From Pseudomonadota bacterium (GTDB lineage Bacteria; Pseudomonadota; Alphaproteobacteria; JACQOE01): a stretch of DNA of 64,000 nt. The DNA is taken from the NCBI GenBank assembly GCA_016202695.1, contig JACQOE010000029.1:61332-125331 (forward strand), written 5' to 3'. Below, one piece after another: positions 35,102 to 53,954 of the stretch (position 1 is the stretch's first letter; each line of letters starts with the position of its first letter). The notes under the pieces are model-generated. The model ran no database searches, had not been told where the DNA came from, and saw only the letters and a program-made list of their open reading frames with translations. The position numbers and the translations under genes were made by a program.

Positions 35102-35137
35102 GGATTTCGGTTCCTCTGATCAGCCTGCGGCCGGCCA

Positions 35138-35728: not shown

Positions 35729-35877
35729 CCGCCCCCCGTGATCTTGACGATGGTGACTAGGTAGAAGAGCACCGCGAGCCCGCCGAGCACCGCGAGGAGC
35801 GCGAGGTTGCGGCCGCGCACCCGACGCGCGCGCTCGTCCGTCGCGCCCGGCTCCCTCTCGATTCGCTCGCCGGCCAC
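35725..35877 (-). CDS. Unannotated 50-aa single-TM protein in ctaB-ctaG gap (GTG start)
   Basis: Manual translation VAGERIEREPGATDERARRVRGRNLALLAVLGGLAVLFYLVTIVKITGGG*; stop TGA overlaps ctaG ATG (ATGA); below the 60-aa track cutoff. Confidence 0.4.
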   Translation of the reverse strand: MAGERIEREPGATDERARRVRGRNLALLAVLGGLAVLFYLVTIVKITGGG

Positions 35878-35890
35878 GGCGCCCGCCCCC

Positions 35891-36820
35891 CTAGGCCCAG
35901 CCCAGGAGCGCCGCGGCGCGGTCCGCGATCAGCGCGCAGAAGATGAGGAAGAGATAGACGATCGAGAAGCCGAACATGCGCTTCGCACTCGCCACGCCCC
36001 GATCGCGGAAGACCGCGAGCGCGCGATAGAGGAACGTGGCGGAGAGCAAGACCGCGGAAACCCCATAGACCGGACCCGAAAGCCCGACCGCGAGCGGCGC
36101 CAACGAAATCGCCGCCACCACCGCACTGTAGAGCAGGATCTGGCGGCGCGTCTCGCGCTCGCCCGCGACGACCGGCAGCATCGGCACCCCGGCACGGGCG
36201 TAGTCGGCGCTGCGGTAGAGGGCGAGCGACCAGAAGTGGGGCGGAGTCCAGAAGAAAATGAGGGCGAACAGGATGAGGGCCTCGATCCCCACGTCGCCGG
36301 TCGCCGCCGCCCAGCCGATCACCGGCGGGAAGGCCCCGGCGGCGCCCCCGATGACGATGTTCTGCGGGGTGCGCCGCTTGAGCCAGACCGTGTAGACGAA
36401 CACGTAGAATGCGATCGAGAGCGCAAGCAGCGCCGCCGCCGCCAGCCCTACCACCAATCCCATCAGCAGCACCGAGCCGGCGGCGAGGGCGACCCCGAAG
36501 GACAGCGCCTCCTCGGGCCGCATGCGCCCCGCCGGGATGGGGCGAGCGCAGGTTCGCGTCATCACCGCGTCGATGTCGCGGTCGTACCACATGTTGATCG
36601 CCCCGGCCGCGCCGGCGCCGAGCGCGATGGCGAGCACGGCGACCGCCCCGATCAGCGGATTCGCCCCGCCGGGCGCGAGCAGGAGCCCGGCAAGGCCGGT
36701 GAACACGACCAGCGACATCACCCGCGGCTTGAGGATCGCGACGTAGTCGCGCGCCGAGGCGAGATCGACGACCGCTTGCGCCGCCGCCCGCGAACTGAGG
36801 TCACCTGCGCTCTCGGACAC
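35891..36820 (-). CDS. ctaB: Protoheme IX farnesyltransferase (heme O synthase)
   Basis: UbiA-family polyprenyltransferase motifs, 9 TM. Confidence 0.95.
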   Translation of the reverse strand: MSESAGDLSSRAAAQAVVDLASARDYVAILKPRVMSLVVFTGLAGLLLAPGGANPLIGAVAVLAIALGAGAAGAINMWYDRDIDAVMTRTCARPIPAGRMRPEEALSFGVALAAGSVLLMGLVVGLAAAALLALSIAFYVFVYTVWLKRRTPQNIVIGGAAGAFPPVIGWAAATGDVGIEALILFALIFFWTPPHFWSLALYRSADYARAGVPMLPVVAGERETRRQILLYSAVVAAISLAPLAVGLSGPVYGVSAVLLSATFLYRALAVFRDRGVASAKRMFGFSIVYLFLIFCALIADRAAALLGWA

Positions 36821-36872
36821 TCTTGTCGCTCCCTCTGCGCTTCTCCGCCGTTCCGCCGCGATCGGCGCACCC

Positions 36873-38537
<1,665 letters not shown>

Positions 38538-39386
38538 TCACTGGGTGGCCGTCGCCACCTCGACCGGCGCGCCGTCGGCGCGCGCGAACTTCTGCTTCGC
38601 CTCCGCCACCCACTTGGCGAAGTCCTCCTTCGACACGGCGTCGATGGCAACCGGCATGAAACCGTGGTTGACTCCGCACAGCTCGGAGCACTGGCCGAAA
38701 TAGGTGCCCGGCTTGGTGATCCGCGTCCAGGTCTCGTTCACCTTGCCGGGGATGGTGTCCATCTTCACCCCGAGCGCGGGGACCGCCCAGGAATGAAGCA
38801 CATCGGTGGAGGTGAAGAGGAGGCGGACGTTGGTGTCCACCGGCAGCACCACCCGATTATCGGTCTCCAGAAGCCGCCTCTGGCCCGGCTTGATTTCGGC
38901 GTCGGAGACCAAGTTGGCGTCAAACGTAAAGCCGCCATCATCGGAATACTCGTAGCTCCAGTACCATTGATGGCCGACGACCTTGAGCGTCATCTCGGCG
39001 TCGGCGGTGCGATCCTGGAAGTAAAGGAGGCGGAAGGAGGGGATGGCGATGATCACCAGGACGATCACCGGGACCACCGTCCACAGAACCTCGACGACGG
39101 TGTTGTGGGAGGTGCGCGAGGGAACCGGGTTGCGCGAGGCCCGGAAGCGGACGATCACGTAAAGAAGGAGGCCCAGCACGAGCACGCAGATGCCGATGAT
39201 GATCACCAGCAGCATGTCGTGGAACGCGACCAGCCGCTCCATCACCGGCGAGGCGGGGGGCTGGAAGTAGAGCTGCCAGGGCTCGGGCGCGGCCGCCAGG
39301 ACGCCAGACGCATGACCAAGGCCGAACGCGATCACCGCGCCCCGGACGAGGCGTGCCCCGAGTGCTCCGAGAACCATGCTCACCAT
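38538..39386 (-). CDS. ctaC: Cytochrome c oxidase subunit II
   Basis: Start at Met60 of track ORF after GAGAGGG RBS; CuA site HSWAVPALG...CSELCGVNHGFM. Confidence 0.9.
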   Translation of the reverse strand: MVSMVLGALGARLVRGAVIAFGLGHASGVLAAAPEPWQLYFQPPASPVMERLVAFHDMLLVIIIGICVLVLGLLLYVIVRFRASRNPVPSRTSHNTVVEVLWTVVPVIVLVIIAIPSFRLLYFQDRTADAEMTLKVVGHQWYWSYEYSDDGGFTFDANLVSDAEIKPGQRRLLETDNRVVLPVDTNVRLLFTSTDVLHSWAVPALGVKMDTIPGKVNETWTRITKPGTYFGQCSELCGVNHGFMPVAIDAVSKEDFAKWVAEAKQKFARADGAPVEVATATQ

Positions 39387-39682
39387 CCCTCTCAAGAGGA
39401 CCAAGCCCCTTTGGTGGAGGCACTTATCTAGCGGCCCCTCAACCGAGATGCAAAGCAAAAATCCAGGGATCGAGCTGCCCGCCGGCGGCGCCCCGCGACC
39501 CGGCGCCGGGGAGCAAAAATGGTGCCCGACCAGGGGCCTGCCCGCCTTCCTGGATGCCCTCAAAGGACCCGGTCGAGGGCTCGCCGGCCGCTAAGACGAT
39601 CCTCGACTGCCAGCCGGATCGGCGGTCGACCGAGGACGACGCCGGCCCAATACCGGGTGGCGCCCGCTGCCCCGCCGGAGCC

Positions 39683-41590
39683 TCAGCGCCGCTCCCGGCC
39701 CGCCCGAGGCGCCTTGGCCTTGATCGCCAGGTTCGTCTCCACGTAGTCGAGCAGGACGGCAAGCGACTGGGCCACGTCCTGGCTTCCGGTGTCGACCACG
39801 AGCTCGGGGCTCCCCGGTGGTTCGTAGGGCGCGGAGATGCCTGTGAAGTCGGGGATCTCGCCCCGGCGCGCCTTCTTGTAGAGGCCCTTGGGATCGCGTG
39901 CCTCGCAGGTGGCGAGGTCGGCCCGGACGTAAATCTCGTGGAAGAGGTCGGGGGCGATCGCGCGCACCCGGTCGCGATCCGAGCGGTAGGGCGAGATGAA
40001 GGCGGTGATCACCAGCATCCCCGCGCGGGCGAAAAGCGCCGCCACCTCGCCCACGCGGCGGATGTTCTCGGCCCGGTCGTCGGGGCTGAAGCCGAGGTCG
40101 GCCGAGAGCCCGTGGCGGATGTTGTCGCCGTCGAGCACGAACACCTGGTAGCCCTTGCGGAACAACCGCTGCTCGAGCTCGAGGGCGAGCGTGGTCTTTC
40201 CCGCGCCCGAGAGCCCGGTGAGCCAGAGGATGCCGCTCTTGTGGCCGTTGACCAGCGAGCGGCTCTCCTGCCCGACGCGGTGATCGACGCTGGTGATGTT
40301 GGTCGACTTCACCGTCAGCGCGTGGCGTTGGTCGGGGTAGCCGCGCATGTTGATGATGCCGCCGCCGACGATGTCGTCGTCGTCGAGGAGCACGACGCGC
40401 CCGGTGGCGGGGTTGGCGGTGAAGGGGTCGAGGACCACGGTCGAGCGCGCGCGCAGCACGACCTCGGCCACCCCGTTGCGCTCGACGACGCCGTCGCTGC
40501 GCGCCGAGAGGTCGGCGACGTCGATGACCGTCTCGACCTCCTGCACCTGTAGCTGCAGCTCGGCGGTGTTGAGCCTGGCCTTGTAGCGGTCGCCCGCGGC
40601 AAGCGGCCGGCGGCCCAGCCAGAAAAGGCGCGCGCGGAAGACGGTGCTGAGCACGGGGGCCGCCTCGAGGTGGCTGATCACCTCGCCGCGCTCGACGAAG
40701 ATCTGCTCATCGAGCGTGATCCCGATGCTCTGGCCCGTGGCCGCGGCGAGGACGGGCTGCGCCGCCCCCCAGGCCTCGATCGAGGAGACCCTGGCGGTCT
40801 TGTTGGAGGGCGAGAGGAGTACCGTGTCCCCCACCCTGAGCCGCCCCGACTCGATCCGCCCGGCGATGATCCGGCGTTGGTCGAATTTGTAGATGTCCTG
40901 GATGGGAAGTCGGAGCGGCAGATCGGTGGGGCGCGGCGCCGGCGCGAGCTGGTCGAGGGCCTGGACCAGCGTCATACCCTCGTACCAATCCATGGCACCG
41001 CCGGCGGCCCCGCGCCGGGCGACGTTGTCGCCGGTCTGGGCCGAGAGCGGAACGATATGGGTGGGGAGGATGCCAAGCTCGGCGAGACAGGCCCGCGCGT
41101 CGGCCGCAACATCGGCGAAGGCGGTGAAGGAAAAGTCGGCCAAGTCCATCTTGTTGACCGCCACCGCGACCTGACGGATGCCGAGGAGGTGGACGAGATA
41201 GGCGTGGCGGCGCGTCTGCTCCTGCATGCCCTCGGTCACATCGACGACGAGCAGGGCGGCATCCGCGGGCGCCGCCCCGGTGATCATGTTCCTGACGAAC
41301 TCGCGGTGGCCGGGGGTGTCGATGATGACCAAGGCGCGCCGCTCGGTGCACAGCCGGGTTTGGGTGGTGTCGATGCTGAGGCCCTGCTCGCGCTCGGCCT
41401 GGAGCGCGTCCAGGAGAAACGCCCACTCGAATGGCATTCCCCGGCGCCCGCACATCGCGCGCACCGCCTCGATACGACCCTCGGCAAGACCGCCAGTCTC
41501 CGCCAGCATCCGCCCGATCAGCGTCGACTTGCCGTGCTGCGCGTGGCCGACGACGACGACCTTGACCGTCTGTGGATCGTGCTCGGCCAT
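39683..41590 (-). CDS. cysNC: Bifunctional sulfate adenylyltransferase subunit 1 / adenylylsulfate kinase (CysN-CysC fusion)
   Basis: N-terminal GTPase GHAQHGKST...DTPGH...NKMD; C-terminal APS kinase GLSGAGKTT. Confidence 0.9.
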   Translation of the reverse strand: MAEHDPQTVKVVVVGHAQHGKSTLIGRMLAETGGLAEGRIEAVRAMCGRRGMPFEWAFLLDALQAEREQGLSIDTTQTRLCTERRALVIIDTPGHREFVRNMITGAAPADAALLVVDVTEGMQEQTRRHAYLVHLLGIRQVAVAVNKMDLADFSFTAFADVAADARACLAELGILPTHIVPLSAQTGDNVARRGAAGGAMDWYEGMTLVQALDQLAPAPRPTDLPLRLPIQDIYKFDQRRIIAGRIESGRLRVGDTVLLSPSNKTARVSSIEAWGAAQPVLAAATGQSIGITLDEQIFVERGEVISHLEAAPVLSTVFRARLFWLGRRPLAAGDRYKARLNTAELQLQVQEVETVIDVADLSARSDGVVERNGVAEVVLRARSTVVLDPFTANPATGRVVLLDDDDIVGGGIINMRGYPDQRHALTVKSTNITSVDHRVGQESRSLVNGHKSGILWLTGLSGAGKTTLALELEQRLFRKGYQVFVLDGDNIRHGLSADLGFSPDDRAENIRRVGEVAALFARAGMLVITAFISPYRSDRDRVRAIAPDLFHEIYVRADLATCEARDPKGLYKKARRGEIPDFTGISAPYEPPGSPELVVDTGSQDVAQSLAVLLDYVETNLAIKAKAPRAGRERR

Positions 41591-41629: not shown

Positions 41630-42424
41630 CTACATGTACCCGCCGCCGCGCAGCCGCTCGACGGCGTCCTCGGCCTCGTGGTCCATGGCGCGGCCCGCGC
41701 GCTCGGCGACACGGGTCGTCTCCAGCTCGGTGATGATCTCGTCCAGGCTCGCGGCGGTGCTGGCGATCGGGGTCGTGGCGTCGGAATCGCCGAGCGAGCG
41801 GTAGCGCCGGCCGGCGCGCGCGAAGTAGAGCTCGACCACGGGGATGCCCTCGCGCCGGATGTAGCGCCACACGTCGACCTCGCCCCAGTGCAGGAGCGGA
41901 TGGACGCGAAGGTGGGCCCCGGGCGCCACGCCGGTCTTGAACTGGTCCCAGAACTCGGGCGGCTGGTCGCGCGAGTCCCATCCGCCCCTGGCCCCGCGCG
42001 GGCTGAAGACGCGCTCCTTGGCCCGCGTCGGCTGCTCGTCGCGGCGAATTCCGGCGACGACTCCGACGAAGCCGTGGCGCTCGATCAGGCGCCTGAGACC
42101 CGCCGACTTGCGCGCCGCCAAGCGGGCGGCGGGAGGCAGCGTCGGGTCCATCTCCTCGACCGGCGGGCAGTCGCCGACGATCAGATCGAGCCCCCACTCC
42201 TTCGCATAGCGGTCGCGAAAGGGGCGCGTCTCGGGGAACTGCGTGCCGGTGTCGATGTGCAGCACCGGAAAGGGAACGTGCCCGAAGAACGCCTTGCGGG
42301 AGAGCCAGACGAGGACGGTGGAGTCCTTGCCCGACGACCACAGGAGGGCGATCGGCTTCAGCCGGCTGAAGGCCTCGCGCAGGACATAGACGCTCTGGCT
42401 CTCGAGGGCATCCAGGTGGTCCAT
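41630..42424 (-). CDS. cysD: Sulfate adenylyltransferase subunit 2
   Basis: Start at Met461 of track ORF (MDHLDALESQS...); PAPS-reductase-like SGKDS motif. Confidence 0.9.
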   Translation of the reverse strand: MDHLDALESQSVYVLREAFSRLKPIALLWSSGKDSTVLVWLSRKAFFGHVPFPVLHIDTGTQFPETRPFRDRYAKEWGLDLIVGDCPPVEEMDPTLPPAARLAARKSAGLRRLIERHGFVGVVAGIRRDEQPTRAKERVFSPRGARGGWDSRDQPPEFWDQFKTGVAPGAHLRVHPLLHWGEVDVWRYIRREGIPVVELYFARAGRRYRSLGDSDATTPIASTAASLDEIITELETTRVAERAGRAMDHEAEDAVERLRGGGYM

Positions 42425-42636
42425 GGGAATCTTCGAGACTCCTCGGGCTCGGTCCGGGCCGGAGAGGCGGCCGGGTGAGGCGCCCGGCCCTTGGGGACAG
42501 CACGAAACCACCCTGCACAAGGGATTGCAACCAAAACCGGTGTGGGAGCGGCGATCATCCTCGGCCGGGGCTGGGACGGGGTCGCGGGCGGCGGCCGCGC
42601 GACCCGCGGCGCGGGCCGGACGCCTCGCGAAACGGC

Positions 42637-43794
42637 TCAGATGGAGAGGCCAGGATCGAGCAGGCGGCCCTTCAGGCTGTCCTCGAAGGTCTGCAGCCGC
42701 ACGAACGACTTGATCTGATCGGCGATGCGGGCGTGATACTGGCGCCGTTGGTCGGGGTCGAAGAGGGTGGTCTCCGCGCTCTCGCGGTGGAAGTTGGCCG
42801 AGCGGAAGCCCACGTCGGCGGCGTGGACAAGGCGCTCGCGGGCGCCGCGCACCTTCCCCGACATCTCGGCCAACGCCAGCTCGGCGGTTGCGACGTCGGA
42901 CTCGGCGCTCGCCGCATTGGCCGCGGTGGTGAGGTCGGCGGTGCGGAGCCCGGCCGCGAGCACGCCGCTGAACGTGGGCTCGAGGTCGAGCGACACGGTG
43001 TCCTCGGCCGCCGCGTCGCGCCCGACCTGGACGTCGAAGCCGCGCGCGCTGATCGTGCCCGATACCGTGAGGTCGGCGGCATCGACCGCCGGGTCGATAT
43101 CGGTGCCGGGATCGAAGTTCTCGTTGATGGTGATGGTGAGGGCGAGGTCGCGAATGGGAACGGCGCGCGTCTGGCCCGCGGCCGGCGCCGTCGTCACCGC
43201 CTCGGAAACCGCCTGAACCCCGGTGGTGGTGTTGGTCACCGTGAACCGGTTGGTGGTGCTGCTGTAGGCCACCTCGAGCACATCGCCGTCGGCGAGGGCG
43301 CCGTTGGTGGGATTGGAGAAGGTGAAGCCGGCAAAGCCGTTCGCCGCCGAGAGGTCGGCCCCCACCGAGGTGGCGCTGAAGGAGGCGATCCCGGCAAGCA
43401 GGAACACCCTGTCTGCCTCGATGTTGGCCGCGGTTTCGTCGATCTGGGAACGGAGCGAGCGGAACTCCTGATCGAGGAGCGAGCGGTCGTAATCGGAGAG
43501 ATCGTCCTCGGCCGCCGACTGGGCCAAATCCTCGATCTGCCCGAGCAGCTCCTCGATCACGTCGAACCCTTCGATCGCCTTGGCCAGCGTGCCGTTGGCG
43601 TCGGCGCCGTTCTGCGCCCCCTGGGCGATGAGGACGCCGGCCGCGCTCAGCCGGTTGGCGAGGAGCCCGGTGACGGTGTTGAGGTCGCTGTTGCGGGCGT
43701 AGAACGGGTCGAACCGGCGCTCCGGCTCGAACGCCCGGTCGAAGGTGGCCGCGATCTGCGACTGGTTCAGCCTGAGGGATACGACATCGACCAT
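42637..43794 (-). CDS. Flagellin/FlgL-like protein (N-terminal flagellin helical domain), orphan
   Basis: ...IAQGAQNGADANGTLAKAIEGFDVIEELLGQIEDLAQSAAEDD...LLDQEFRSLRSQIDETAANIE... resembles flagellin D0/D1 N-terminal region; Thr/Ser/Asp-rich variable middle; start at Met41 (MVDVVSLRLNQ). Confidence 0.5.
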   Translation of the reverse strand: MVDVVSLRLNQSQIAATFDRAFEPERRFDPFYARNSDLNTVTGLLANRLSAAGVLIAQGAQNGADANGTLAKAIEGFDVIEELLGQIEDLAQSAAEDDLSDYDRSLLDQEFRSLRSQIDETAANIEADRVFLLAGIASFSATSVGADLSAANGFAGFTFSNPTNGALADGDVLEVAYSSTTNRFTVTNTTTGVQAVSEAVTTAPAAGQTRAVPIRDLALTITINENFDPGTDIDPAVDAADLTVSGTISARGFDVQVGRDAAAEDTVSLDLEPTFSGVLAAGLRTADLTTAANAASAESDVATAELALAEMSGKVRGARERLVHAADVGFRSANFHRESAETTLFDPDQRRQYHARIADQIKSFVRLQTFEDSLKGRLLDPGLSI

Positions 43795-43984
43795 GGTGAG
43801 CCACGTCTCACCCGGCACGTTCCCGTAAGGGCCTCGCCCCCACGGCGCATCCTGCTCGAAAGGCCGGTTCACGGCCCGCCCATCCTGGGAAGGCCGGATC
43901 GTCCTTGCGGACAATCTATCTCGCTCTCTTCACCTCTCCCACGCGAGGGGCCCCGCCCACCGGGATCCCCTGTAAAAACAGCTA

Positions 43985-44049: not shown

Positions 44050-44670
44050 TCAGCGCCCGCCGACCGGGGGCTTGCGGGTGAGGTCGGCCAAGAAGGCGCG
44101 GAAGATTCCGCCCACCGCCTGGCCGTAGGCGGCCACCGTCGCCGGGATGCCGGACTCGGCCGCCGGCCGCTCGGCCCGGTAGACCTGGATGACCTCGAGC
44201 CCGCGCTCGCCCCCCTGGCCGACGCCGAGCTCGAGCTCGACCAGGACCGAAGCGCCGGTCGCGCCGACGAGGCGCTCGAGGCGGCGGATCTTGCCGGTCA
44301 GCACATAGGGCGCGCCGGCGCGCTGCTCGGAGGTGATCACGGCGCGGGCAATGTTCGCCTGGCGGAGGAACGCCACCAACTCTTCCTGCAGGAGCCGCGA
44401 GGGGGGCTCGACCCAGTAATGGTAGTCGTAGCGGTCGAGCTCGAAGCTCGCCTCGCGCCGTGAGAAGAGGAGGGCCCGCTCGGCCAGGAGCCCGTCGGCG
44501 AGGAAGCGGCGCACCTCCAGGGCCCCGTCGAAGAGGGGGGCGGAGAGCGCCCGCTCGGGCGGCGCCACCTCCAGCCGGTAGTAGTGATCGCGCGGCACCG
44601 GGGCCGAGCCCCCGCATCCCCCGACCGGGAGCGCCAGGGCCAGGACGACAATGAGGCGCGCCGCCCTCAT
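44050..44670 (-). CDS. ABC-transporter auxiliary lipoprotein (PqiC/YmbA-like, DUF330)
   Basis: Lipobox LALPVGGC; DHYYRLE motif typical of PF03886; 4-nt overlap with MCE gene. Confidence 0.75.
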   Translation of the reverse strand: MRAARLIVVLALALPVGGCGGSAPVPRDHYYRLEVAPPERALSAPLFDGALEVRRFLADGLLAERALLFSRREASFELDRYDYHYWVEPPSRLLQEELVAFLRQANIARAVITSEQRAGAPYVLTGKIRRLERLVGATGASVLVELELGVGQGGERGLEVIQVYRAERPAAESGIPATVAAYGQAVGGIFRAFLADLTRKPPVGGR

Positions 44671-45725
44671 GGCCCTCCTCCTCCCCCCGGTGCCGACTCC
44701 GACGCGCCCTCCAGCTTCGTTCCCTGCAGCAGCACGCTTGGGTTGCTGCGGATCTGGCGACTGAACTCGTAGACGTTGCGGCTGGCCCCTTCCAGGTTGT
44801 TGGCGATGGCGTCGATCCGGCCAGCGAGCGACTCGAGCACATGGCGCATGTCGCCCATCGAGGCGCCCACCGCTCCGGCGTTCTCGTCGGCGATCCGGTT
44901 GAGCGAGGCGATGAGCTTGCCGAGATCATCCAGGCTCGCGCGCATATCCTCGATGAGGTGGCCGAAGCCCTCGGAGGAGGTCTGCATGTTCCCGATCACC
45001 CCCTCGATCCGGGCCATGTTCTCCGCGGAGAGAAGCTCGTTGAGGCGCGCGCTCGATCGGTTGAGGGTGGAGAGGAAGCCCTTGAGGTCGCGGGAAACCG
45101 CGGGCGAGGACTCGGCGAGGTCGGAGACGATGCGCCGGAGGTTGTCGGTGACATCGACCACCGCCGGCTCGACCACGGTCCCGACCCCGTCGACCATCGC
45201 GGTGATGCGCTCGACGAGCGGCTTGATGCGGTTGCGCGAGAGGTCGGTCACCTCCTCGGCGACCGAGGTCATGAGCGCGAGCATGTCGCCGCCCGGCTCG
45301 CTGGCGATCCGCGCCCCGCGCTCGAGGTAGGTGCCGCTCCGGCCGCCGCGGATGTCGATGACCAGGGCGGAGAGGAGCCCCGGGGCCGAGATGCGGGCGA
45401 TACTGTCGGCGGGAACCTGCCAGCCCGAGATCACGCTCGCCTCGACCCGGAAGCGGAGCTTGCCATCCTCGGTGATCGGCTCGATGTGCTCGATCTGGCC
45501 GACCGGGAACCCCTCGTAGAGAACCTGCGAGCCGAACTTGAGGCCGGCGACGTTGTCGAAGACGATTGAGTAGCGGTCGGTGGTGCCGGCCCGGCCGGTC
45601 AATACGGCAAGCACCACCACGAATACCGCCAGCATGACGAGCACGACGCTGCCGACGACGATATAGTTGATGCGGCTGCTGCGCATGGCGCGGCCGAGCG
45701 CCCCCTTCCCGCCCTGCTCCTGCAC
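44667..45725 (-). CDS. MCE-family substrate-binding protein (MlaD-like) with extended C-terminal helical region
   Basis: N-terminal TM + MCE domain (YSIVFDNVAGLKFGSQVLYEGFPVGQIEHIE); GTG start sharing 1 nt with MlaF stop. Confidence 0.85.
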   Translation of the reverse strand: MQEQGGKGALGRAMRSSRINYIVVGSVVLVMLAVFVVVLAVLTGRAGTTDRYSIVFDNVAGLKFGSQVLYEGFPVGQIEHIEPITEDGKLRFRVEASVISGWQVPADSIARISAPGLLSALVIDIRGGRSGTYLERGARIASEPGGDMLALMTSVAEEVTDLSRNRIKPLVERITAMVDGVGTVVEPAVVDVTDNLRRIVSDLAESSPAVSRDLKGFLSTLNRSSARLNELLSAENMARIEGVIGNMQTSSEGFGHLIEDMRASLDDLGKLIASLNRIADENAGAVGASMGDMRHVLESLAGRIDAIANNLEGASRNVYEFSRQIRSNPSVLLQGTKLEGASESAPGGGGGP

Positions 45726-46546
45726 TACCCCTCGCCGGTCAGTCGGCGGAGGTAGGCATCGGCGTCGAGTGTAGCCTCCTCCGAGCGCCGGTTCAGCAGA
45801 TTCTGGATGCGCGGATTGGGACTCGCGCGCACCTCCTCGACGCTGCCCACCATCAGGATCTCGCCCCGGTCGAGCACGATCAGGCGATCGGCGATCTTCA
45901 AGGCGCTCTCGAGCTCGTGGGTGACCACGACGATGGTGATGCCGAGGGCGTCGCGGAGCTTGAGGATCAGGTCGTCGAGCTCGGCCGCCACTATTGGGTC
46001 GAGGCCCGCCGAGGGCTCGTCGCAGAAGAGGAGCTTGGGGTCCATGATGATCGCCCGAGCGAAAGCCGCGCGCTTGGTCATGCCGCCCGAGAGCTCGGAG
46101 GGCATCAGGCCCTCGAAGCCGGCGAGCCCGACCACCTCGAGCTTCATGCGGGCCATGATCCGCATGGTGCGCTCGTCGAGGTCGGTGTGCTCGCGCAGGG
46201 CCAGCATGATGTTCTCGCCGACGGTCATCGAGCTGAAGAGCGCACCGCCCTGGAAGGCCACCCCCATGTGTTTGCGCAGTTCCGCGAGTTCCGGTCCCTT
46301 GAGGCGGCCAAGATCGCGCCCGAGCACCTTGACCGTGCCCGCGTCCGGCGTCTCGAGGGCGATGAGCTGGCGCAGGAGCGTGCTCTTGCCCGAGCCGCTG
46401 CCGCCCATGATGACCATGATCTCGCCGTCGTAGATGTCGAAGCTCACCCCTTTCAGGATGGTGCGCTCGCCGTAGCGCACCACCACGTTCTCGACCTCGA
46501 TCACCCTCGGCCGGCCCTCGGCCACGGCGAGCGGAAGGGCACCCAT
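45725..46546 (-). CDS. ABC transporter ATP-binding protein (MlaF-like)
   Basis: Start at internal Met (MGALPLAVAEG...), Walker A GGSGSGKST, signature LSGGM, Walker B LLFCDEP. Confidence 0.9.
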   Translation of the reverse strand: MGALPLAVAEGRPRVIEVENVVVRYGERTILKGVSFDIYDGEIMVIMGGSGSGKSTLLRQLIALETPDAGTVKVLGRDLGRLKGPELAELRKHMGVAFQGGALFSSMTVGENIMLALREHTDLDERTMRIMARMKLEVVGLAGFEGLMPSELSGGMTKRAAFARAIIMDPKLLFCDEPSAGLDPIVAAELDDLILKLRDALGITIVVVTHELESALKIADRLIVLDRGEILMVGSVEEVRASPNPRIQNLLNRRSEEATLDADAYLRRLTGEG

Positions 46547-47346
46547 CAGCGGCTCACGACGAAGGCGAAGATCATGTCGGTGATGACGATCGCGCTGATC
46601 CCGTGTACGACCGAGCGGGTGGTGGCGCGGCCCACGCCTTCGGCGCCGCCGCGCACCGAGGCCCCGTTGACCGCACCGACCAGGGTGATGAGGACGGCGA
46701 AGATCAGGCTCTTGCCGAGCCCGTGGAAGAGATCGTCGGTGGTGATCGAGTCGATGCAGGCATCGGTGTACGCCGCGAGCGACATACCCAGCTCGATCGC
46801 GACGTAGAGCCCGCCGCCAAGAATGGCGACGAGGTCGGCGTAGAAGGTGAGCACCGGCAGCATCACCACCATGGCGAGGAGCGCCGGCGCGACCAGGAAG
46901 CGCACTGGGTTGACCGCCATCGTGGTGAGAGCGTCGATTTCCTGGTTGATGGTCATGGTCCCGAGCCGGGCGGCGATCGCCGACCCCGAGCGCCCCGTCA
47001 CCAGGATGCCGGTGATGAGGGGCGCGAACTCGCGGGTGACCGAGAGCGCAATGCCCAGAGTCACCCGGTCCTCGGCCCCGAAAATCCTGAGGGTGTAGAT
47101 GCCCTGGATCGCGAGCATGACGCCGATGGTGAGCGAGAGCACGGTGACGATGGGAAGCGCGAGGATGCCGATCTCCATCATCTGCACGAAGACGGAGCCG
47201 ACGCGCACCGGCTGGCGCCGGCGCCTGCCCATCAGCGTCCAATAAAGACTCTCGGCGAAGAGCGCGCCGGCGAAGCCGAGGTCGGCAAGCCCGCGCGCGG
47301 TCGCCCGCCCGACCTGCTCGGCGACATCGGCAAGCGGCCGCAGCAC
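46546..47346 (-). CDS. ABC transporter permease (MlaE-like)
   Basis: MlaE/Ttg2B family pattern (...QMMEIGILALPIV...EIDAL...). Confidence 0.9.
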   Translation of the reverse strand: MLRPLADVAEQVGRATARGLADLGFAGALFAESLYWTLMGRRRRQPVRVGSVFVQMMEIGILALPIVTVLSLTIGVMLAIQGIYTLRIFGAEDRVTLGIALSVTREFAPLITGILVTGRSGSAIAARLGTMTINQEIDALTTMAVNPVRFLVAPALLAMVVMLPVLTFYADLVAILGGGLYVAIELGMSLAAYTDACIDSITTDDLFHGLGKSLIFAVLITLVGAVNGASVRGGAEGVGRATTRSVVHGISAIVITDMIFAFVVSR

Positions 47347-47350
47347 CCGC

Positions 47351-47683
47351 TCAGCCGCCGCTGGCGAGCGCCTCGGCGACGCTCGCGTGAATCGCGAAGA
47401 CCTTGTCGAGGCGCGCCAGGCTCAGGACCCGCATGGCGGCGGGACTCACCGCCGCGAGCGCCAAGCGCCGGCCCCTGAGCCGCGCCGCCTGAAGCGCCTC
47501 GACCAGGCTGGCGATGCCGGAGGAGTCGATGTAGGTGATCCGAGCCATGTCGACGAGCACGTCGCGGCCGCGTCCGACCGCCTTCAGCAGCACCTCTCGC
47601 GCCTCGGGCGAGCTGTCGAGGTCGACGTCGCCCTCGAGCGTAACCACGAGCGTGGCGCCGTCCTCGCGGAGCTGGTGTTTCAT
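47351..47683 (-). CDS. STAS-domain protein (anti-sigma-factor antagonist fold; MlaB position) with phosphorylatable DSSG motif
   Basis: 110 aa; ...ARITYIDSSGIASLVEA... = conserved SpoIIAA/RsbV phospho-Ser loop; 4 nt upstream of MlaE start, overlaps kinase stop. Confidence 0.85.
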   Translation of the reverse strand: MKHQLREDGATLVVTLEGDVDLDSSPEAREVLLKAVGRGRDVLVDMARITYIDSSGIASLVEALQAARLRGRRLALAAVSPAAMRVLSLARLDKVFAIHASVAEALASGG

Positions 47684-48183
47684 GGCCTCTCCCCCTCGGC
47701 CTTTCCCGCCGCCGCCCCGGTCGGTGCGATCCTTTTGACCATGCGCAGCAGGTTGCCACCGCCGGCGGGGCGCGGCAGGAAGGCGACCTCGTCCATCACC
47801 TCTCGGATCAGATGCGTGCCAAGCCCTCCCGGCCTCAGCTCGTCGAGGTCGCGGGGCCTGACCCGGCGCTCGTCCACCGGCGGGGCGAAGTCGCGGAGCT
47901 CCACCGCCACCCGATCGCCCTCCCGTCGCATCGTCAGCACAATCTCGCCGTCGGGCCGCCCCGAATAGGCGTGGCGGATGACGTTCTGACAGGCCTCGTC
48001 GACCGCGAGCACGATGTCATGGACCGCGTCCTCGCTGCAACCGGTCGAGCGCACCGCCGCCGCCACCGCGGCACGGACCATCTTCAGCCGGTCGGGAAGG
48101 GAGCGGAAGCGAAGCTCGAACAGCGTCTCGGCCGCGGCGCCCTCCGCTAGCGAAGGCTCGGCCCGGGTGGGGTTGGCCGCCAC
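47680..48183 (-). CDS. RsbW/SpoIIAB-like serine protein kinase (HATPase_c anti-sigma regulatory factor fold)
   Basis: GTG start (codon 62 of track ORF) after GAGGGG RBS, 12 nt after phosphatase stop; VHDIVLAVDEACQNVIRHAY N-box; G-boxes LRDFAPP...GGLGTHLI. Confidence 0.75.
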   Translation of the reverse strand: MAANPTRAEPSLAEGAAAETLFELRFRSLPDRLKMVRAAVAAAVRSTGCSEDAVHDIVLAVDEACQNVIRHAYSGRPDGEIVLTMRREGDRVAVELRDFAPPVDERRVRPRDLDELRPGGLGTHLIREVMDEVAFLPRPAGGGNLLRMVKRIAPTGAAAGKAEGERP

Positions 48184-48194
48184 GCCCGCGCCCC

Positions 48195-49481
48195 TCAGGC
48201 TCCGTCCACGGCGACCAGGGTGAGGTCGTCGTGGATCTCGCCGCCCGCGGGGCAGAGACGGTCGACGACGATTCTGAGGAGTTCCGGAGAGGTGAAGCGC
48301 CCCGCAAGCTCGGCGATCATCGCCGTCAGCCCCTCTGCCCCCAGGCGCCCGCCGCCCGGCAGCCAAGCCTCGGTGACGCCGTCGCTGAAGACGTAGAGGG
48401 TGCCGCCTCCCAGCTCCAGCTCGCTCACCGGGGGGCCGGTCTCGGGAATCAGGTTGGCGGCGATGCCGAGCGGCGGCACGCTCGCCGGAAGGGCGGTGAA
48501 GCGGCCCCCGCGGGCGCGGAAGAGTGGCGGCTCATGGCCGGCATTGGCCAGGCGCACCCGGCGGCGCGAGGGATCGAGCACGCCGCAGACCATGGTGACG
48601 AACATCCCTCGCGTCACTGTCTCGCAGATCTCGGCGTTGACTCGGGCGATCAGTCGGCCGGGATCGTGGACCTCCTTGCCGAGGCAGCGAAAGACGCTCG
48701 CGGTCTTGGCCATGAGGAGCGCGGCGTTCATGCCCTTGCCGGAGACGTCGCCGAGGGCGAAGCAGACGCTGCCGTCGGCGAGCGGGAAGAAGTCGTAGAA
48801 GTCGCCGGAGACGCACCGCGCCGGCTGGTTGGCGCCGCAAACGGGAAAGGGAACCGGACGGGGAGCGGGAAGAAGGTTCCTCTGGATCTCGGCGGCCAGC
48901 TCCAGCTCGCGGCGCATGCGCTGCTGCTCGACCAGCTCGGCCGACATCTGCGCGTTCATCACCGCCAGCGCCGCGGCCGAGGCGAGCGCCTGAACGAGGT
49001 GGCGGTCGCGCTCGTCGAAAAGCCCGCCGCCGCGCTTGTTGATCAGCTCGATCGCGCCCAGGCAGAGGTCGCCGTGGCCCAAGGGCGCGCACAGGATCGA
49101 GCGGGTGGTGAAGCCGGTGAGCTTGTCGACCGCCTTGCCGAACTGCGGATCCTTCGACACGTCGCGGACCATCTGCGTCTCGAGCTCGCGGATCGAGCGT
49201 CCGACGATGCCGCCGTCGGCGGGGAGCCTGAGCCCGGTGATGTCGACCGGGCCGAAGCAGGCCCGGCAGACCACCGCCGTGCCGTCCTCATCGAGAAGGA
49301 AGAGCGAGGAGGCCTCGGCGCTCACCTGATCGGCGATTCGCTTCAGACCGCGCCGGAGGGTCGCCTCGACGTCGAGGGTCCGGGCGAAGTCGTGGATGAG
49401 GTCGGCGAGGAGGTGCAGACATTCGAACACCTCCTCGGCCGCCGCGGAATGCGCGCTTGCCGCCCGGTTGCTCGCCGACAT
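48195..49481 (-). CDS. GAF-domain PP2C/SpoIIE-type serine phosphatase (RsbU/RsbP-like)
   Basis: N-terminal GAF (…LFLLDEDGTAVVCRACFGP…ILCAPL…); C-terminal PP2C (…SGDFYDFF…GDVSGKG…DDLTLVAV). Confidence 0.85.
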   Translation of the reverse strand: MSASNRAASAHSAAAEEVFECLHLLADLIHDFARTLDVEATLRRGLKRIADQVSAEASSLFLLDEDGTAVVCRACFGPVDITGLRLPADGGIVGRSIRELETQMVRDVSKDPQFGKAVDKLTGFTTRSILCAPLGHGDLCLGAIELINKRGGGLFDERDRHLVQALASAAALAVMNAQMSAELVEQQRMRRELELAAEIQRNLLPAPRPVPFPVCGANQPARCVSGDFYDFFPLADGSVCFALGDVSGKGMNAALLMAKTASVFRCLGKEVHDPGRLIARVNAEICETVTRGMFVTMVCGVLDPSRRRVRLANAGHEPPLFRARGGRFTALPASVPPLGIAANLIPETGPPVSELELGGGTLYVFSDGVTEAWLPGGGRLGAEGLTAMIAELAGRFTSPELLRIVVDRLCPAGGEIHDDLTLVAVDGA

Positions 49482-49566: not shown

Positions 49567-49929
49567 CTACTCGCCTTCGATCTCGCGCTCCTCGGCGACG
49601 TGATCGACCATGTCGGTGAGCACGGCGCGGATGTGCTCGTCGGCGACCAGGTAGAACACCTGGCGCCCCTGGCGCTGCGCCTGCAGCAGCCGCGCCGCGC
49701 GCAGGAGCCGGAGGTGGTGGCTGACCAGCGACGGCGAGAGCTTGAGCTTGCTCGCCATCTCGCCCACCGAGACCTGCTGATGGAGGCAGGTGAGGATGAT
49801 GCCCAGCCGGGTGGGATCGCTCATCAGCCGGAAGACCTCGGCCAGTTCGACGACCTCGTCCTCGCCCAGCCGCGGCCCGGTCACCGTCGGCGAGGCGGGG
49901 TTCTTCAACACGGGAACGCCCTTCGGCAC
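49567..49929 (-). CDS. ArsR/SmtB-family metalloregulatory transcriptional repressor
   Basis: wHTH ...AEVFRLMSDPTRLGIILTCLHQQVSVGEMASKLKLSPSLVSHHLRLLRAARLL... Confidence 0.85.
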   Translation of the reverse strand: MPKGVPVLKNPASPTVTGPRLGEDEVVELAEVFRLMSDPTRLGIILTCLHQQVSVGEMASKLKLSPSLVSHHLRLLRAARLLQAQRQGRQVFYLVADEHIRAVLTDMVDHVAEEREIEGE

Positions 49930-50097: not shown

Positions 50098-50160
50098 TGT
50101 TCATCTGTAAATTTGAACATCAATGCAAACATGTATGCTGTTCATCTGTACATATGAACA
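50098..50160. promoter_or_regulatory. Two 22-bp palindromic operators TGTTCA-N10-TGAACA (50098-50119 and 50139-50160) in ArsR/MCO divergent region
   Basis: TGTTCATCTGTAAATTTGAACA and TGTTCATCTGTACATATGAACA, centres 41 bp apart, inside an AT-rich 250-bp intergenic region. Confidence 0.5.
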
Positions 50161-50207
50161 CCCGTTTGAAAGTCGCGCGAGACGAGAGAGAGCGGGAGGG
50201 CGACGGA

Positions 50208-51377
50208 ATGGCTGAAACGGGAACCGGGGCGAGACGGGCGAGATGGGCGCCGCGGCCGGCGGCCACGCGCCCGGCGCTCGAGGTGTCGCGCCGGGGCATG
50301 CTCCTGGGCGGTTTAATCGGCTCCGCCGGGGCGCTCCTTCCGCGGCTTGCCCGGGCCGACGCCGCGGCGGCGGCCACGGCGAGCCCGGGCGCCCCCTACC
50401 CGGCGGCGGGCGCGCATGCCAGCGGCGGAGCGATGGACCACGGTGGCATGATCACGGTCGGCAACGTCGATTCGGCGCGCAACGGCTTCGACCCGCACGA
50501 CCTCCTCGCCGACTTCACCACCGGTGCAATTTCGACCCTGGCCGGCGGCCGGCGGCTTCGCCAATTCGAGGTCGTCGCCGAGGACAAGGAGATCGAGGTC
50601 GCTCCCGGGGTATTCTTCCCGGCCTGGACCTTCAACGGCCGGGTGCCAGGTCCCACCCTCCGGGTGAGCGAGGGAGACCGGGTGCGCATCCGCTTCGTCA
50701 ACCACGGCTCGCATCCCCACTCGATCCACTTCCACGGCATCCACAGCGCGCGCATGGACGGCGTGCCCGGCGCCGGCCTAGTCGAGCCGGGGGGCGAATT
50801 CGTCTACGAGTTCGACGCCTTCCCCTTCGGCTGCCACCTCTACCACTGCCACGCGGTGCCCCTGAAGCGGCACATCCACAAGGGCCTCTACGGCGCCTTC
50901 ATCGTCGACCCCGACCCGGCCCGCCACCCCGAGCACGCCGAGGCCGCCCGCTCGCGGCTCCTCGGCGCGCCCGAGAACGCGCGCTGGCAGGAGCTGGTGA
51001 TGGTGATGAACGCCTTCGACACCAACTTCGACGAGGAGAACGAGGTCTACGCGGTCAACACCGTTGCCCACGCCTACGCGAGGAGGCCGATCCCGCTCGA
51101 CCGCCAAAGGCCGGTCCGCGTCTACCTCGTCAACGTCACCGAGTTCGACCCCATCAACTCGTTCCACCTCCACGCCAACTTCTTCGACTACTACGACCAT
51201 GGCACCACGCTGACGCCGACGCTTAGGACGGTCGACACCGTGATGCAGTGCCAGGCGCAGCGGGGGATTCTCGAGTTCTCGTTCAAGGACCACGAGCCCG
51301 GACTCTACATGTTCCACGCCCACCAGTCGGAATTCGTCGAGCTCGGCTGGATGAGCTTCTTCGAGGTGCGGCCATGA
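50208..51377 (+). CDS. Tat-secreted multicopper-oxidase-type cupredoxin protein
   Basis: Start at Met19 after GGGAGGG RBS; twin-arginine SRRGMLLGG; copper sites HSIHFHGIH, LYHCHAV, HAHQSE. Confidence 0.85.
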   Translation: MAETGTGARRARWAPRPAATRPALEVSRRGMLLGGLIGSAGALLPRLARADAAAAATASPGAPYPAAGAHASGGAMDHGGMITVGNVDSARNGFDPHDLLADFTTGAISTLAGGRRLRQFEVVAEDKEIEVAPGVFFPAWTFNGRVPGPTLRVSEGDRVRIRFVNHGSHPHSIHFHGIHSARMDGVPGAGLVEPGGEFVYEFDAFPFGCHLYHCHAVPLKRHIHKGLYGAFIVDPDPARHPEHAEAARSRLLGAPENARWQELVMVMNAFDTNFDEENEVYAVNTVAHAYARRPIPLDRQRPVRVYLVNVTEFDPINSFHLHANFFDYYDHGTTLTPTLRTVDTVMQCQAQRGILEFSFKDHEPGLYMFHAHQSEFVELGWMSFFEVRP

Positions 51378-52528
51378 TCCGGGCGGCGGGCCTGGCGGCA
51401 CTGCCGCTCGTCGCCCTCGTTGCCGTGATCGGCCTCATGGCGACGCTCAACCCGCTCGCCACTGTCAGCGTCACTGCGCCGCCGATCGAGACGCTCACGG
51501 TCGAGCGCACTGTGCTCGACGAGGGCGGAATCTCTCTCCTCGTGCGCGCCAGCGGAAGCGAGCCGCTGGCGATCGCCCAGGTGCAGGTGGACGGCGCCTT
51601 CTGGCGCTTCGCCCAGGAGCCGCCGGGGCCTCTCGCCCGGCTCGCGACCGCCTGGATTCGTATTCCCTATCCCTGGGTCGGGGGCGAGCGCCACAAGCTG
51701 GTGATGATCAGCCGCACCGGCGCCACATTCGAGCACGCGATCGCGGTCGCCGTCGCCAGCCCGAAGTGGTCGCTGGCGCAGATGCGGGCCTACACCTGGA
51801 TCGGGTTCGTGGTCGGGTTCGTACCGGTCTCGCTCGGCATGCTTTTCTATCCGCTCCTGCAGCGATTGAGCCGGCGCGGCTTCGAGTTCACGCTCGCCCT
51901 CACCGTCGGGCTGCTCCTCTTCCTGTTGATCGACACCCTCGCCGAGGGTCTCGAGCTCGCCGGCGGGGCGGCGCCCGAGTTCCAGGGGGCAGCGCTCGTC
52001 TGGCTCGTCGCCGGGCTCACCTTCCTCACCCTGATGGCAATCGGCCGGCGCGGCGGGCACGCGCCCGAGGGGATCGCGCTCGCGACCTACATCGCCCTCG
52101 GGGTCGGGCTGCACAACCTCGGCGAGGGGCTCGCCGTCGGGGCCGCCTTCGCCGCCGGCGAGGCGGCGCTGGGCGCCTTCCTGGTGGTCGGATTCGTGCT
52201 CCACAACCTCACCGAGGGCGTCGGCATCGTCGCGCCGCTGACTGAGGACCGCCCGCACCTTTACGTCTTCCCCGCGCTCGCCGCGCTTGCCGGCCTGCCG
52301 GCGATCGCCGGCGCCTGGGCGGGGAGCGTGGCCTACGCGCCGCACCTCGCGGCGCTCTTCCTCGGAGTCGGCGCCGGGGCGATCCTTCAGGTCGTCGTCG
52401 AGGTTGGCTCCTACCTCGCGCGCCGCGCCGCGCGCACCGGCGCCTCGTGGCTGTCGGCGAGCACGGTGACCGGCACCTTCGCCGGGGTGGCGGTGATGTA
52501 CGCGACCGCCTTCCTGGTCAAGTTCTAG
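51374..52528 (+). CDS. ZIP-family metal cation transporter with ~150-aa N-terminal periplasmic extension
   Basis: ATGA overlap with MCO stop; two LHNLxEG ZIP signature motifs ([26 protein letters not shown]). Confidence 0.75.
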
Positions 52529-52547
52529 GGGCGGGTGGAGAAAACGC

Positions 52548-53954
52548 ATGAGTGAGCGAGCGGCCCTCGGGATCAAGCTGCCGCCGGCCGCGGCGGCGGG
52601 GACTGCGGCCCCCCTCGGCATCTGGGCGCCGCTCGCCGACTCCGCGGACGCGCGGCCGGCCGTCCCCAGCCTCGCCGAGGTCTACCGGAGCATCCCCGTC
52701 GCCCGTGACGCGCCCTTCTGGCGCCGGGCGATCGCCTTCGCCGGGCCCGGTTACCTAGTTGCCGTCGGCTACATGGACCCCGGCAACTGGGCGACCGACA
52801 TCGCCGGCGGCTCGGCCTTCGGCTATACGCTGCTTTCGGCGGTGCTGCTGGCCAGCCTGCTCGCCATCCTCTTCCAGGCGCTCGCCGCCAAGCTCGGCAT
52901 CGCCACCGGGCTCGATCTCGCCCAGGCCTGCCGGCGCCATTACAGCCGGCCAGTGGCGCATGCCCTCTGGCTCTTGGCCGAGACCGCGATCTGCGCCACC
53001 GACCTCGCCGAGGTGATCGGCACCGCGGTCGCGCTCAACCTCCTGTTCGGCATCCCGATCCTGGCCGGGGTCGTGATCACCGCGCTCGACGTGCTCCTGA
53101 TCCTCGCCCTTCAGGCCCGCGGCTTTCGCCACCTCGAGGCCTTCGTGATGACGCTCCTGGTGATCATCGCCGGCTGCTTCGCCTTCCAGGTGGCGCTCTC
53201 GCGCCCCGATCTCGCCGCCCTGTTCGGCGGCTTCCTGCCCTCGGCCGAGGTGGTGCGCAACCCGGCGATGCTTTACATCGCCATCGGCATCCTCGGCGCC
53301 ACCGTGATGCCCCACAACCTCTACCTCCACTCCGCGATCGTGCAGACGCGGGGCTTCGAGGAGAGCGAGCGCGGCCGGCGCGACGCGATCCGCCTCGCCA
53401 CCGTCGACAGCACCATCGCGCTCAGCCTCGCCCTGGTCATCAACGCCAGCATCCTGATCGTCGCCGCGGCCGCGTTCCATGCCGCCGGCCAGACCGAGGT
53501 GACCGAGATCCACCAGGCCTACGGGATGCTGGCGCCGCTCCTCGGCGTGCCGGCGGCCGCCACCGCCTTTGCCGTGGCCCTGCTCGCCGCCGGACAGAAC
53601 TCGACGGTGACCGGCACGCTCGCCGGCCAGGTGGTGATGGAGGGGTTCCTCGACATCCGCCTGCCGCCCTGGCTCAGACGCCTCGTGACCCGCGCGATTG
53701 CGATCGTCCCGGCGGTGGCGGTGACGGCGCTCTACGGCGAGAGCGGCACGGCCAAGCTCCTGATCCTGAGCCAGGTGGTGCTCAGCCTCCAGCTCCCCTT
53801 CGCGGTGGTGCCGCTGGTGCTGTTCACGAGCGACCGCGCCAAGATGGGCCGATTCGTGAACCGGCGCTGGCTCGCCCTGCTCGCCTTCGCCGCGGCGAGC
53901 GTGATAATTGCGCTCAACGTGAAGCTGGTGGCCGATTTCGCCGGCGCCCTCTGA
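52548..53954 (+). CDS. mntH: NRAMP-family divalent metal (Mn2+/Fe2+) transporter
   Basis: [17 protein letters not shown] signature, 11-12 TM. Confidence 0.9.

Follow-up and report, generated by a model that had tools for sequence, protein, structure and literature searches.

A gene on the minus strand of a 64,000-nucleotide stretch of a Pseudomonadota bacterium genome (NCBI GenBank assembly GCA_016202695.1, contig JACQOE010000029.1, positions 61,332 to 125,331; referred to as the window, with a G+C content of about 70%) encodes GAF-PP2C, a SpoIIE-family serine phosphatase with an N-terminal GAF domain. We propose, with moderate confidence, that GAF-PP2C is the sensory phosphatase of a partner-switching module wired to an Mla/MCE-type ATP-binding cassette (ABC) lipid transporter, in which the ligand-gated phosphatase would reset an MlaB-like STAS protein. 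GAF-PP2C alone is an ordinary member of an already known architecture, and its interest lies in its wiring, not in the protein itself. A sequence-only reading of the window had described this fusion of a GAF domain to a SpoIIE/PP2C phosphatase and had cast it as the input to an Mla-linked switch. The open reading frame (ORF), matches to both Pfam families, and all of the quoted motifs are present, and the genes downstream do read as kinase, STAS, mlaE, mlaF, mlaD, and lipoprotein genes. Both synteny and gene fusion lend strong support to placing the phosphatase at the input of a kinase/STAS module linked to Mla genes.

The phosphatase gene is the first of a cassette of seven genes on the minus strand, and is followed by genes encoding a kinase, a STAS protein, MlaE, MlaF, MlaD, and an auxiliary lipoprotein (Table 1). 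The successive intergenic distances are 11, -4, 4, -4, -1, and -4 nucleotides. The kinase gene lies in a different reading frame from the phosphatase gene, 11 nucleotides past its stop codon; the start of the STAS gene overlaps the kinase stop codon, and its own stop codon lies 4 nucleotides before mlaE. The best Protein Data Bank (PDB) matches of the ATPase are the MlaF proteins of Acinetobacter baumannii, Escherichia coli, and Pseudomonas aeruginosa (E values of 1.7e-58 to 2e-52).

We scanned one genome per species for orthologues and recovered 51 orthologous loci (48-61% identity); most of the related loci are in metagenome-assembled genomes (MAGs). The carriers are Rhodospirillales and other Alphaproteobacteria, Gammaproteobacteria MAGs, Rhodocyclaceae (Azonexus, Dechloromonas, and Propionivibrio), Rhodoferax, and Thiohalobacter, and the linkage spans three classes, the Alpha-, Beta-, and Gammaproteobacteria. 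When the window proteins were used as tblastn queries, the order PP2C, kinase, STAS, MlaE was found in every locus that was long enough (46/46), and 30 of these 46 loci preserve the full seven-gene order; the auxiliary lipoprotein gene is present in 30 orthologous loci. The window and every orthologous locus with sufficient sequence encode the partner-switching triad of a PP2C phosphatase, a HATPase_c_2 kinase, and a single-domain STAS protein together. A single chain of 552-612 residues contains both phosphatase and kinase in 38 of the 48 complete genome orthologues; in the window, as in the remaining minority, the two are separate proteins. The same fusion occurs in 69 of the 120 best database matches.

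The arrangement around the triad varies. A Gammaproteobacteria variant, found in MAGs (L020, L021, L023, L024, L026, L031, L036, L037, L039, L048, and L050), encodes the fusion protein, STAS, and MlaE, followed by a stretch of about 2 kb and a convergent MlaF gene. The stretch in L024 encodes a short MlaD, MlaA, and MlaC, which makes this a canonical Mla set, not the long-MlaD/lipoprotein type, and no STAS gene besides the fusion-linked one was seen in the cluster. The order in a Verrucomicrobiota MAG (L052) is STAS-MlaE-MlaF-MlaD-(GAF-PP2C-kinase). The STAS gene therefore stays beside mlaE while the enzyme gene moves, the pattern expected if contact with the transporter is made by STAS. Clustering of the ORFs upstream of the cassette revealed no conserved gene, only lineage-specific ones (IspB, PhaC, MerR, and cox3).

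The 428-residue GAF-PP2C protein matches Pfam SpoIIE (PF07228) over residues 236-425 (E value of 1.2e-40, 139.9 bits against a cut-off of 25), covering profile positions 2-189 of 192, and Pfam GAF (PF01590) over residues 37-174 (1.4e-13, 52 bits against a cut-off of 22.4). Besides the three motifs listed in Table 1, it contains the fourth catalytic motif, FSDGVT, at residues 365-370. The Asp residues of these motifs align with the SpoIIE motifs VSGDSY, SDGMGNG, MSDGI, and EDDMT, and also with RssB and Rv1364c. All four metal-binding positions (D227, D245, D367, and D418/D419) are retained in the alignment with SpoIIE, and are invariant across the 51 orthologues and 14 distant GAF-PP2C homologues. 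Judged by these residues, GAF-PP2C is predicted to be catalytically complete.

An AlphaFold2 model of GAF-PP2C, built from the 51-sequence alignment, has a mean predicted local distance difference test (pLDDT) score of 87.3. It consists of the GAF domain, an uninterrupted helix of 47 residues (157-203), and the PP2C domain. The linker-helix segment is highly conserved among the orthologues (EQxRxRRELELAAEIQRxLLP). Foldseek matched the C-terminal half of the model to the PP2C domains of P. aeruginosa RssB and SiaA and of Mycobacterium tuberculosis Rv1364c; the Rv1364c PP2C-kinase structure 3ke6 matches GAF-PP2C in both fold and sequence. The N-terminal half was matched to the GAF domains of PDE5A, Lcd1 (cAMP-bound), PDE2A, PDE6, PDE10A, and CyaB2. 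Most of the GAF region has a pLDDT near 90, and its Foldseek E values to the GAF domains of PDE5A, Lcd1, and PDE2A are 2e-12 to 5e-11.

The two proteins encoded next resemble the partners of such phosphatases in Bacillus. The best PDB match of the kinase is B. subtilis RsbW (5.6e-11), and its N-box (EACQNVIRHAY) and GGLG lid are conserved. The small STAS protein carries a predicted phosphorylation site, S54, in a YIDSSG motif (codon 47522-47524) that is invariant in 51 sequences and, in alignments, falls on DSSG in SpoIIAA and on DSAG in TM1442. It scores 71.2 on the NCBIfam model ant_ant_sig, above the cut-off of 53.45, and by sequence we would class it as an anti-sigma-antagonist type of STAS protein.

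This class assignment bears on an alternative that we consider unlikely, namely a classical anti-sigma partner switch. In this reading, a sigma factor or another regulator encoded elsewhere would be sequestered by the RsbW-like protein, STAS would only antagonize that protein, and the mla genes would just be co-transcribed or part of the regulon, with no direct contact between STAS and MlaF. Several observations fit this alternative and weigh against our proposal. The STAS protein is closest to RsbV, SpoIIAA, and TM1442, and the kinase to RsbW and SpoIIAB; in phmmer searches, STAS is much nearer to the anti-sigma antagonists TM1442 (3e-13) and SpoIIAA (5.5e-8) than to E. coli MlaB (7e-3). On the NCBIfam MlaB model (NF033618), it scores 21.7, below the cut-off of 90, as does the STAS protein of the Gammaproteobacteria variant (26.4 bits). 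A separate point against our proposal is that the G1 box of the kinase reads D-F-A-P-P instead of D-x-G-x-G, with Ala replacing Gly. The activity of the kinase is not guaranteed because this box is non-canonical; the box of B. subtilis RsbW is likewise non-canonical.

The gene neighborhoods, however, argue against a sigma factor as the output. Of the window genes scanned with Pfam in the region from 38.5 to 57.4 kb, none encodes a sigma factor, and the orthologous loci have no conserved neighbors other than the cassette genes themselves. The STAS gene always directly precedes mlaE, even in L052, in which the phosphatase-kinase gene lies at the other end of the operon, and it is the only STAS gene seen in the canonical Mla cluster of the Gammaproteobacteria variant. 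Sigma factors of the SigB/SigF type are not known to be typical of these Proteobacteria. Partner switches in Proteobacteria often have non-sigma outputs, as in SypA/SypE.

The properties of E. coli MlaB suggest how the wired module of our proposal could act. Thr52 of MlaB, which is at the position equivalent to the phosphorylatable serine of STAS, lies centrally in the interface with MlaF, and the phosphomimetic substitution T52E weakens MlaF binding (Kolich et al. 2020, PMC7367683). MlaF requires MlaB to join the complex, and whether and how MlaB is phosphoregulated was left as an open question in the same study. Taking together which domains are present, which catalytic and phosphorylation-site residues are kept, and how the genes are linked, we infer the following protein-protein and enzymatic steps. 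The kinase would phosphorylate STAS at S54, and GAF-PP2C would reverse this upon binding, or release, of a small ligand in its GAF pocket. As has been suggested for other sensor-PPM phosphatases, the linker helix may carry the ligand signal. STAS without the phosphate would bind MlaF in the manner of MlaB and permit an active MlaFE(D) complex, which phosphorylated STAS could not do. If the phosphorylation state of STAS sets MlaFE(D) activity in this way, the cassette would be a post-translational on/off switch for the transporter. Of the earlier claim that the phosphatase controls envelope lipid transport, the part that stands is the tie between the kinase/STAS module and the Mla genes; the control itself is suggested by gene linkage.

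Table 1. Genes, domains, and sites of the cassette and its upstream flank, in window coordinates.
Feature	Coordinates	Strand	Residues	Evidence or detail
GAF-PP2C (SpoIIE-family) serine phosphatase	48195..49481	-		ORF and translation; ATG start; 428 aa
GAF domain with PDE/cyclase-type pocket	48960..49373	-	37-174	GIVG 91-94, D119, T122, T126, E145, N148-K149, F155, D159
Single long helix linking the GAF and PP2C domains	48873..49013	-	157-203	DSSP on AlphaFold2 model
PP2C catalytic domain	48204..48842	-	214-426	Metal-binding D227, D245, D367, D418/D419
SGDFYD motif of GAF-PP2C	48792-48809		225-230	
GDVSGKG motif of GAF-PP2C	48732-48752		244-250	
DDLTLV motif of GAF-PP2C (aa 418-423) inside IHDDLTLV	48213-48236		416-423	
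RsbW/SpoIIAB-like serine kinase (HATPase_c_2)	47680..48183	-		GTG start; Pfam HATPase_c_2 1.2e-30
Single-domain STAS protein	47351..47683	-		110 aa; Pfam STAS 1.2e-19
MlaE-family permease	46546..47346	-		Pfam MlaE 1.9e-67; TIGR00056 213.3 vs cut-off 212.2
MlaF-type ABC ATPase	45725..46549	-		Pfam ABC_tran
Long MlaD/MCE protein with helical C-terminal extension	44667..45725	-		352 aa; Pfam MlaD 1.5e-11; NCBIfam MCE 9.9e-25
ABC-transport auxiliary lipoprotein (PqiC-like), last conserved cassette gene	44050..44670	-		Pfam ABC_trans_aux 7.3e-11
ArsR/SmtB metalloregulator	49567..49929	-		Pfam HTH_5; NCBIfam HTH_metalloreg (NF033788) 78.4 vs cut-off 55
Two operator-like palindromes of 22-23 nt, TGTTCATCTGTA(A/C)AT(T/A)TGAACA	50098..50160	.		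Repeat search

The GAF domain resembles those of phosphodiesterases (PDEs) and cyclases. In phmmer searches of the PDB, its best matches were PDE5 GAF-A (2.4e-20), PDE2A (3.7e-20), and CyaB2 (3e-16), and heme-binding GAF domains such as that of DevS matched at about 1e-5 only. By both phmmer and Foldseek, the nearest solved GAF domains are nearly all cyclic-nucleotide binders. We compared the pocket with residues of PDE2A GAF-B that reportedly contact cyclic GMP (Martinez et al. 2002). A constant offset of 206 places all ten residue numbers on residues of the right type in structure 1mc0. In the alignment with 1mc0, the window protein keeps I458 (I92), A459 (V93, a backbone contact), D485 (D119), T488 (T122), T492 (T126), and E512 (E145). 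Of the NKFDE signature (N-K-Xn-F-X3-D-E), N148, K149, F155, and D159 are present and conserved. No variation is seen among the orthologues at D119, T126, E145, N148, or K149, and very little at I92, T122, F155, or D159. The pocket is not degenerate: positions that contact the ribose and phosphate are conserved, and the nearest solved relatives bind cyclic nucleotides.

Other positions of the pocket depart from PDE2A GAF-B and weigh against our proposal. F438 and D439 of PDE2A are replaced by C75 and F76, and Y481 by G115, which leaves the domain without equivalents of D439 and Y481, residues that specify the base. At the position of S424, the window protein has a serine (S59), but Ala is the commonest residue there among 49 genome-locus orthologues. 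The final Glu of the NKFDE signature is replaced by R160. The pocket looks functional and of nucleotide-binding type; its contacts to the ribose and the cyclic phosphate appear to be kept, and those to the base are not. Because the base-reading residues differ, the pocket does not point to a particular ligand. No nucleotide cyclase was found by Pfam among 36 of the 40 confident ORFs of the window.

These replacements bring in a second alternative, which we regard as rather unlikely: the GAF domain could be ligand-free and serve only in dimerization or protein contact, like PDE2A GAF-A, which we take to be non-binding. The phosphatase would then be constitutive or otherwise controlled, by cysteine redox chemistry or by the fused kinase, for example. 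This alternative is compatible with the rest of our model. The missing equivalents of D439 and Y481 and the Ala found at the S59 (S424) position in most orthologues favor it, as do an invariant cysteine of the pocket strand (C72) and a close structural relative, the GAF domain of the HD-GYP protein 4mcw, which is not known to be a cyclic-nucleotide binder. Against it stand the invariant and nearly invariant pocket residues listed above. In the same alignment, PDE2A GAF-A has other residues at the positions of D119, T126, and E145, and the kept pocket positions are lost in 7 of 14 distant GAF-PP2C proteins without neighboring Mla genes. Positions that are kept in the orthologues, differ in GAF-A, and are lost in half of the distant GAF-PP2C proteins argue for selection on a ligand site.

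We therefore judge gating of the phosphatase by a cyclic nucleotide, which the sequence-only reading had raised as a possibility, to be plausible but unproven from sequence: the PDE-like contacts are kept, and the equivalents of D439 and Y481 are absent. We know of no PP2C phosphatase that has been shown to be gated by a cyclic nucleotide. The most specific form of our proposal is a post-translational valve on lipid traffic in the envelope, controlled by a second messenger, in which reversible phosphorylation of an MlaB-type STAS protein, by its own kinase and by a phosphatase gated by a nucleotide-type ligand, would switch an Mla/MCE transporter. We put this form forward tentatively, as possible but short of probable.

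The sequence-only reading had also pointed to an ArsR-family regulator upstream and, from it, to possibly metal-responsive control of lipid transport. The regulator is there, on the same strand and with a gap of exactly 85 nucleotides to the phosphatase gene. An identical public protein (P0122, 85 aa) is annotated from Met36 of this ORF. The translation shows a D-x-H-x10-H-x2-E motif (DEHIRAVLTDMVDHVAE) in the C-terminal helix, which we take to be an alpha5 site of the Zn/Co type. The metal control is weakly supported, and the regulator is probably not a member of the cassette. If ArsR/SmtB sensed a metal and governed the cassette, lipid transport would answer metal stress; we consider this the least probable of the alternatives, and improbable in itself. 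The adjacency favors it: a consensus scan detected neither promoter nor terminator in the 85-nucleotide gap, and the RNA of the gap is not predicted to fold more stably than shuffled sequences (z = 0.21). Read-through from arsR into the cassette is possible because no terminator was detected. A search centered on ArsR found the same adjacency in one further genome only, an Acetobacterales MAG (L081, JBBDQX010000007.1, 4700-10348). There, an ArsR protein with 73% identity is encoded 52 nucleotides before a cassette of GAF-PP2C, kinase, STAS, MlaE, MlaF, MlaD, and lipoprotein genes, and is divergent from a ZnuA-type ABC importer.

Metal regulators of a second kind also read toward the cassette. 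The merR genes of mer operons lie on the cassette strand in four other loci (L007, L011, L017, and L049), 71-439 nucleotides before the phosphatase gene. Mer clusters with merT and merP are found directly upstream of the cassette in L007 (6000-9800) and L017 (8400-9870), and the cluster in L007 adds merA and an alkylmercury-lyase-like gene.

The wider survey and the positions of likely operators count against metal control. None of the 51 orthologous loci has an ArsR homologue within 10 kb of the cassette (tblastn, E <= 1), and the upstream gene varies (IspB, PhaC, MerR, or cox3). Taken alone, these 51 loci would suggest that ArsR is never linked to the cassette, a statement that is softened by the adjacency in L081. 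The two palindromes upstream of arsR (Table 1) lie directly before a divergent multicopper oxidase gene, about 170-230 nucleotides beyond the ArsR start. Their core motif, TGTTCANNTNTACAG, has 3 matches in the window against 0.01 expected. The box in L081 (TGTTCAAATGTACAG) adjoins znuA. No such box was found before the phosphatase gene, nor in the 1.19 Mb of loci other than L081. Downstream of the palindromes, the plus strand (50154-53954) encodes the multicopper oxidase, whose probable start lies later in the ORF and is followed by a twin-arginine-like signal; a ZIP-like protein, a weak match of 22.5 bits that falls below the Pfam cut-off; and an NRAMP transporter. These divergent metal genes are probably the real ArsR regulon.

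The adjacency of arsR and the cassette also looks positional. Orthologous arsR genes lie directly before coxB in Roseococcus and Roseomonas (L083 and L085), and others lie before DUF1192. In the window, the cox operon (coxB, coxA, ctaB, ctaG, and coxC; 34277-39563, minus strand) comes after the cassette block, whose members (the cassette, a flagellin-like gene, and cysDN) separate it from arsR. Separately, six Rhodospirillales loci carry COX3 upstream of the cassette, within about 0.6-2.7 kb. Most likely, ArsR regulates the divergent metal genes and at most adds read-through into the cassette; metal control would be at most a lineage-specific transcriptional overlay.

Beyond the cassette on the minus strand, a 425-residue ORF with a weak match to the flagellin N-terminal domain (E value of 2.4e-6) begins 135 nucleotides past the last cassette gene (42637-43914); it has no counterpart in the orthologous loci. 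CysD (41630-42556) and a CysN/adenylylsulfate (APS) kinase protein (39683-41590) are encoded farther along, with one ORF between these genes and the cassette. In 9 of 27 orthologous loci (L001, L007, L008, L011, L012, L015, L017, L018, and L035), the gene immediately after the lipoprotein gene encodes an APS kinase. The recurrence of sulfate-activation genes could hint at a sulfated substrate, or could be mere synteny. A single ORF at 31529-33841 on the minus strand contains SURF1 (residues 29-241) and an M32 carboxypeptidase (residues 282-768); this is a fusion, or else two genes share a frame with no intervening stop codon.

The regulation of Mla/MCE transporters is largely unknown. The sole proposal in the literature that we searched is phosphorylation of MlaB at a residue of the MlaF interface (PMC7367683), for which no kinase or phosphatase is known. 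In the cassette, candidates for the enzymes, for the phosphorylation site (S54), and for a sensory domain are all present. They are conserved over several bacterial classes and accompany both long-MlaD and canonical MlaA/MlaC-type systems. If our proposal is correct, the cassette would be a natural and widespread case of the MlaB-type phosphoregulation left open in PMC7367683, and partner switching would reach beyond transcription to act directly on an ABC transporter. Were the GAF ligand a cyclic nucleotide, second-messenger signaling would be linked to the homeostasis of outer membrane lipids. A full-text search of the literature, in a limited collection whose silence is no proof of absence, returned no description of an Mla-linked partner switch. 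Non-sigma outputs of partner switches are already known from SypA/SypE and Anabaena HenR; what the search did not turn up is a module dedicated to an Mla/MCE transporter.

The cassette shares its enzymes with the RsbU/RsbW/RsbV and SpoIIE/SpoIIAB/SpoIIAA modules of B. subtilis, which likewise encode, side by side, a PP2C phosphatase carrying these four Asp motifs, a serine kinase of the HATPase_c_2 family, and a STAS protein whose phosphorylation site lies in D-S-x-G. Unlike those modules, it has no associated sigma factor gene, and its conserved partners are Mla/MCE genes. Its sensor is a GAF domain, in contrast to the N-terminal domain of RsbU and the membrane domain of SpoIIE, and its phosphatase and kinase are usually fused. 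The architecture of GAF-PP2C itself, an N-terminal GAF domain, a helical linker, and a PPM domain, is already known from the GAF-PPM phosphatases RsbZ of Clostridioides difficile and OsaC of Streptomyces coelicolor, and linker-mediated activation has been proposed for GAF-, PAS-, and REC-PPM phosphatases (PMC12143880). RsbZ and OsaC belong to stress responses of the sigma-B type, whereas the window protein, with its single PDE/cyclase-type GAF domain, is linked to a transporter operon.

A phosphatase and an RsbW-like kinase that act on a STAS protein from within one polypeptide are also found in M. tuberculosis Rv1364c and Vibrio fischeri SypE/SypA. Rv1364c differs in its PAS sensor and fused STAS domain, and SypE in its receiver domain and its control of a biofilm polysaccharide; neither has a link to Mla. 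The output of SypE/SypA is not a sigma factor.

As in E. coli MlaFEDB, mlaE, mlaF, and mlaD are accompanied by a gene for a small STAS protein, and MlaF and MlaE are clear homologues. The E. coli system differs in having no dedicated kinase or phosphatase, and phosphorylation of MlaB has not been observed. The window STAS protein is not an MlaB at the sequence level, and a long MlaD and a PqiC-like lipoprotein replace MlaC and MlaA. The GAF domain shares the GI(V/A)G loop, the equivalents of D485, T488, T492, and E512, and the N-K...F...D positions with PDE2A GAF-B, PDE5 GAF-A, Anabaena CyaB2, and Leptospira Lcd1. Unlike in those cyclic-nucleotide-binding proteins, the output domain is a protein phosphatase and not a phosphodiesterase or cyclase, D439 and Y481 are unmatched, and the NKFDE signature ends in Arg.

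A further parallel is the Anabaena HenR/STAS module, which is described as partner-switching-like and as controlling a glycosyltransferase (PMC13555669). It likewise combines a phosphatase with a STAS protein, and it acts on an envelope-biogenesis enzyme, not on a sigma factor. The HenR module has another target and another sensor and involves no ABC transporter.

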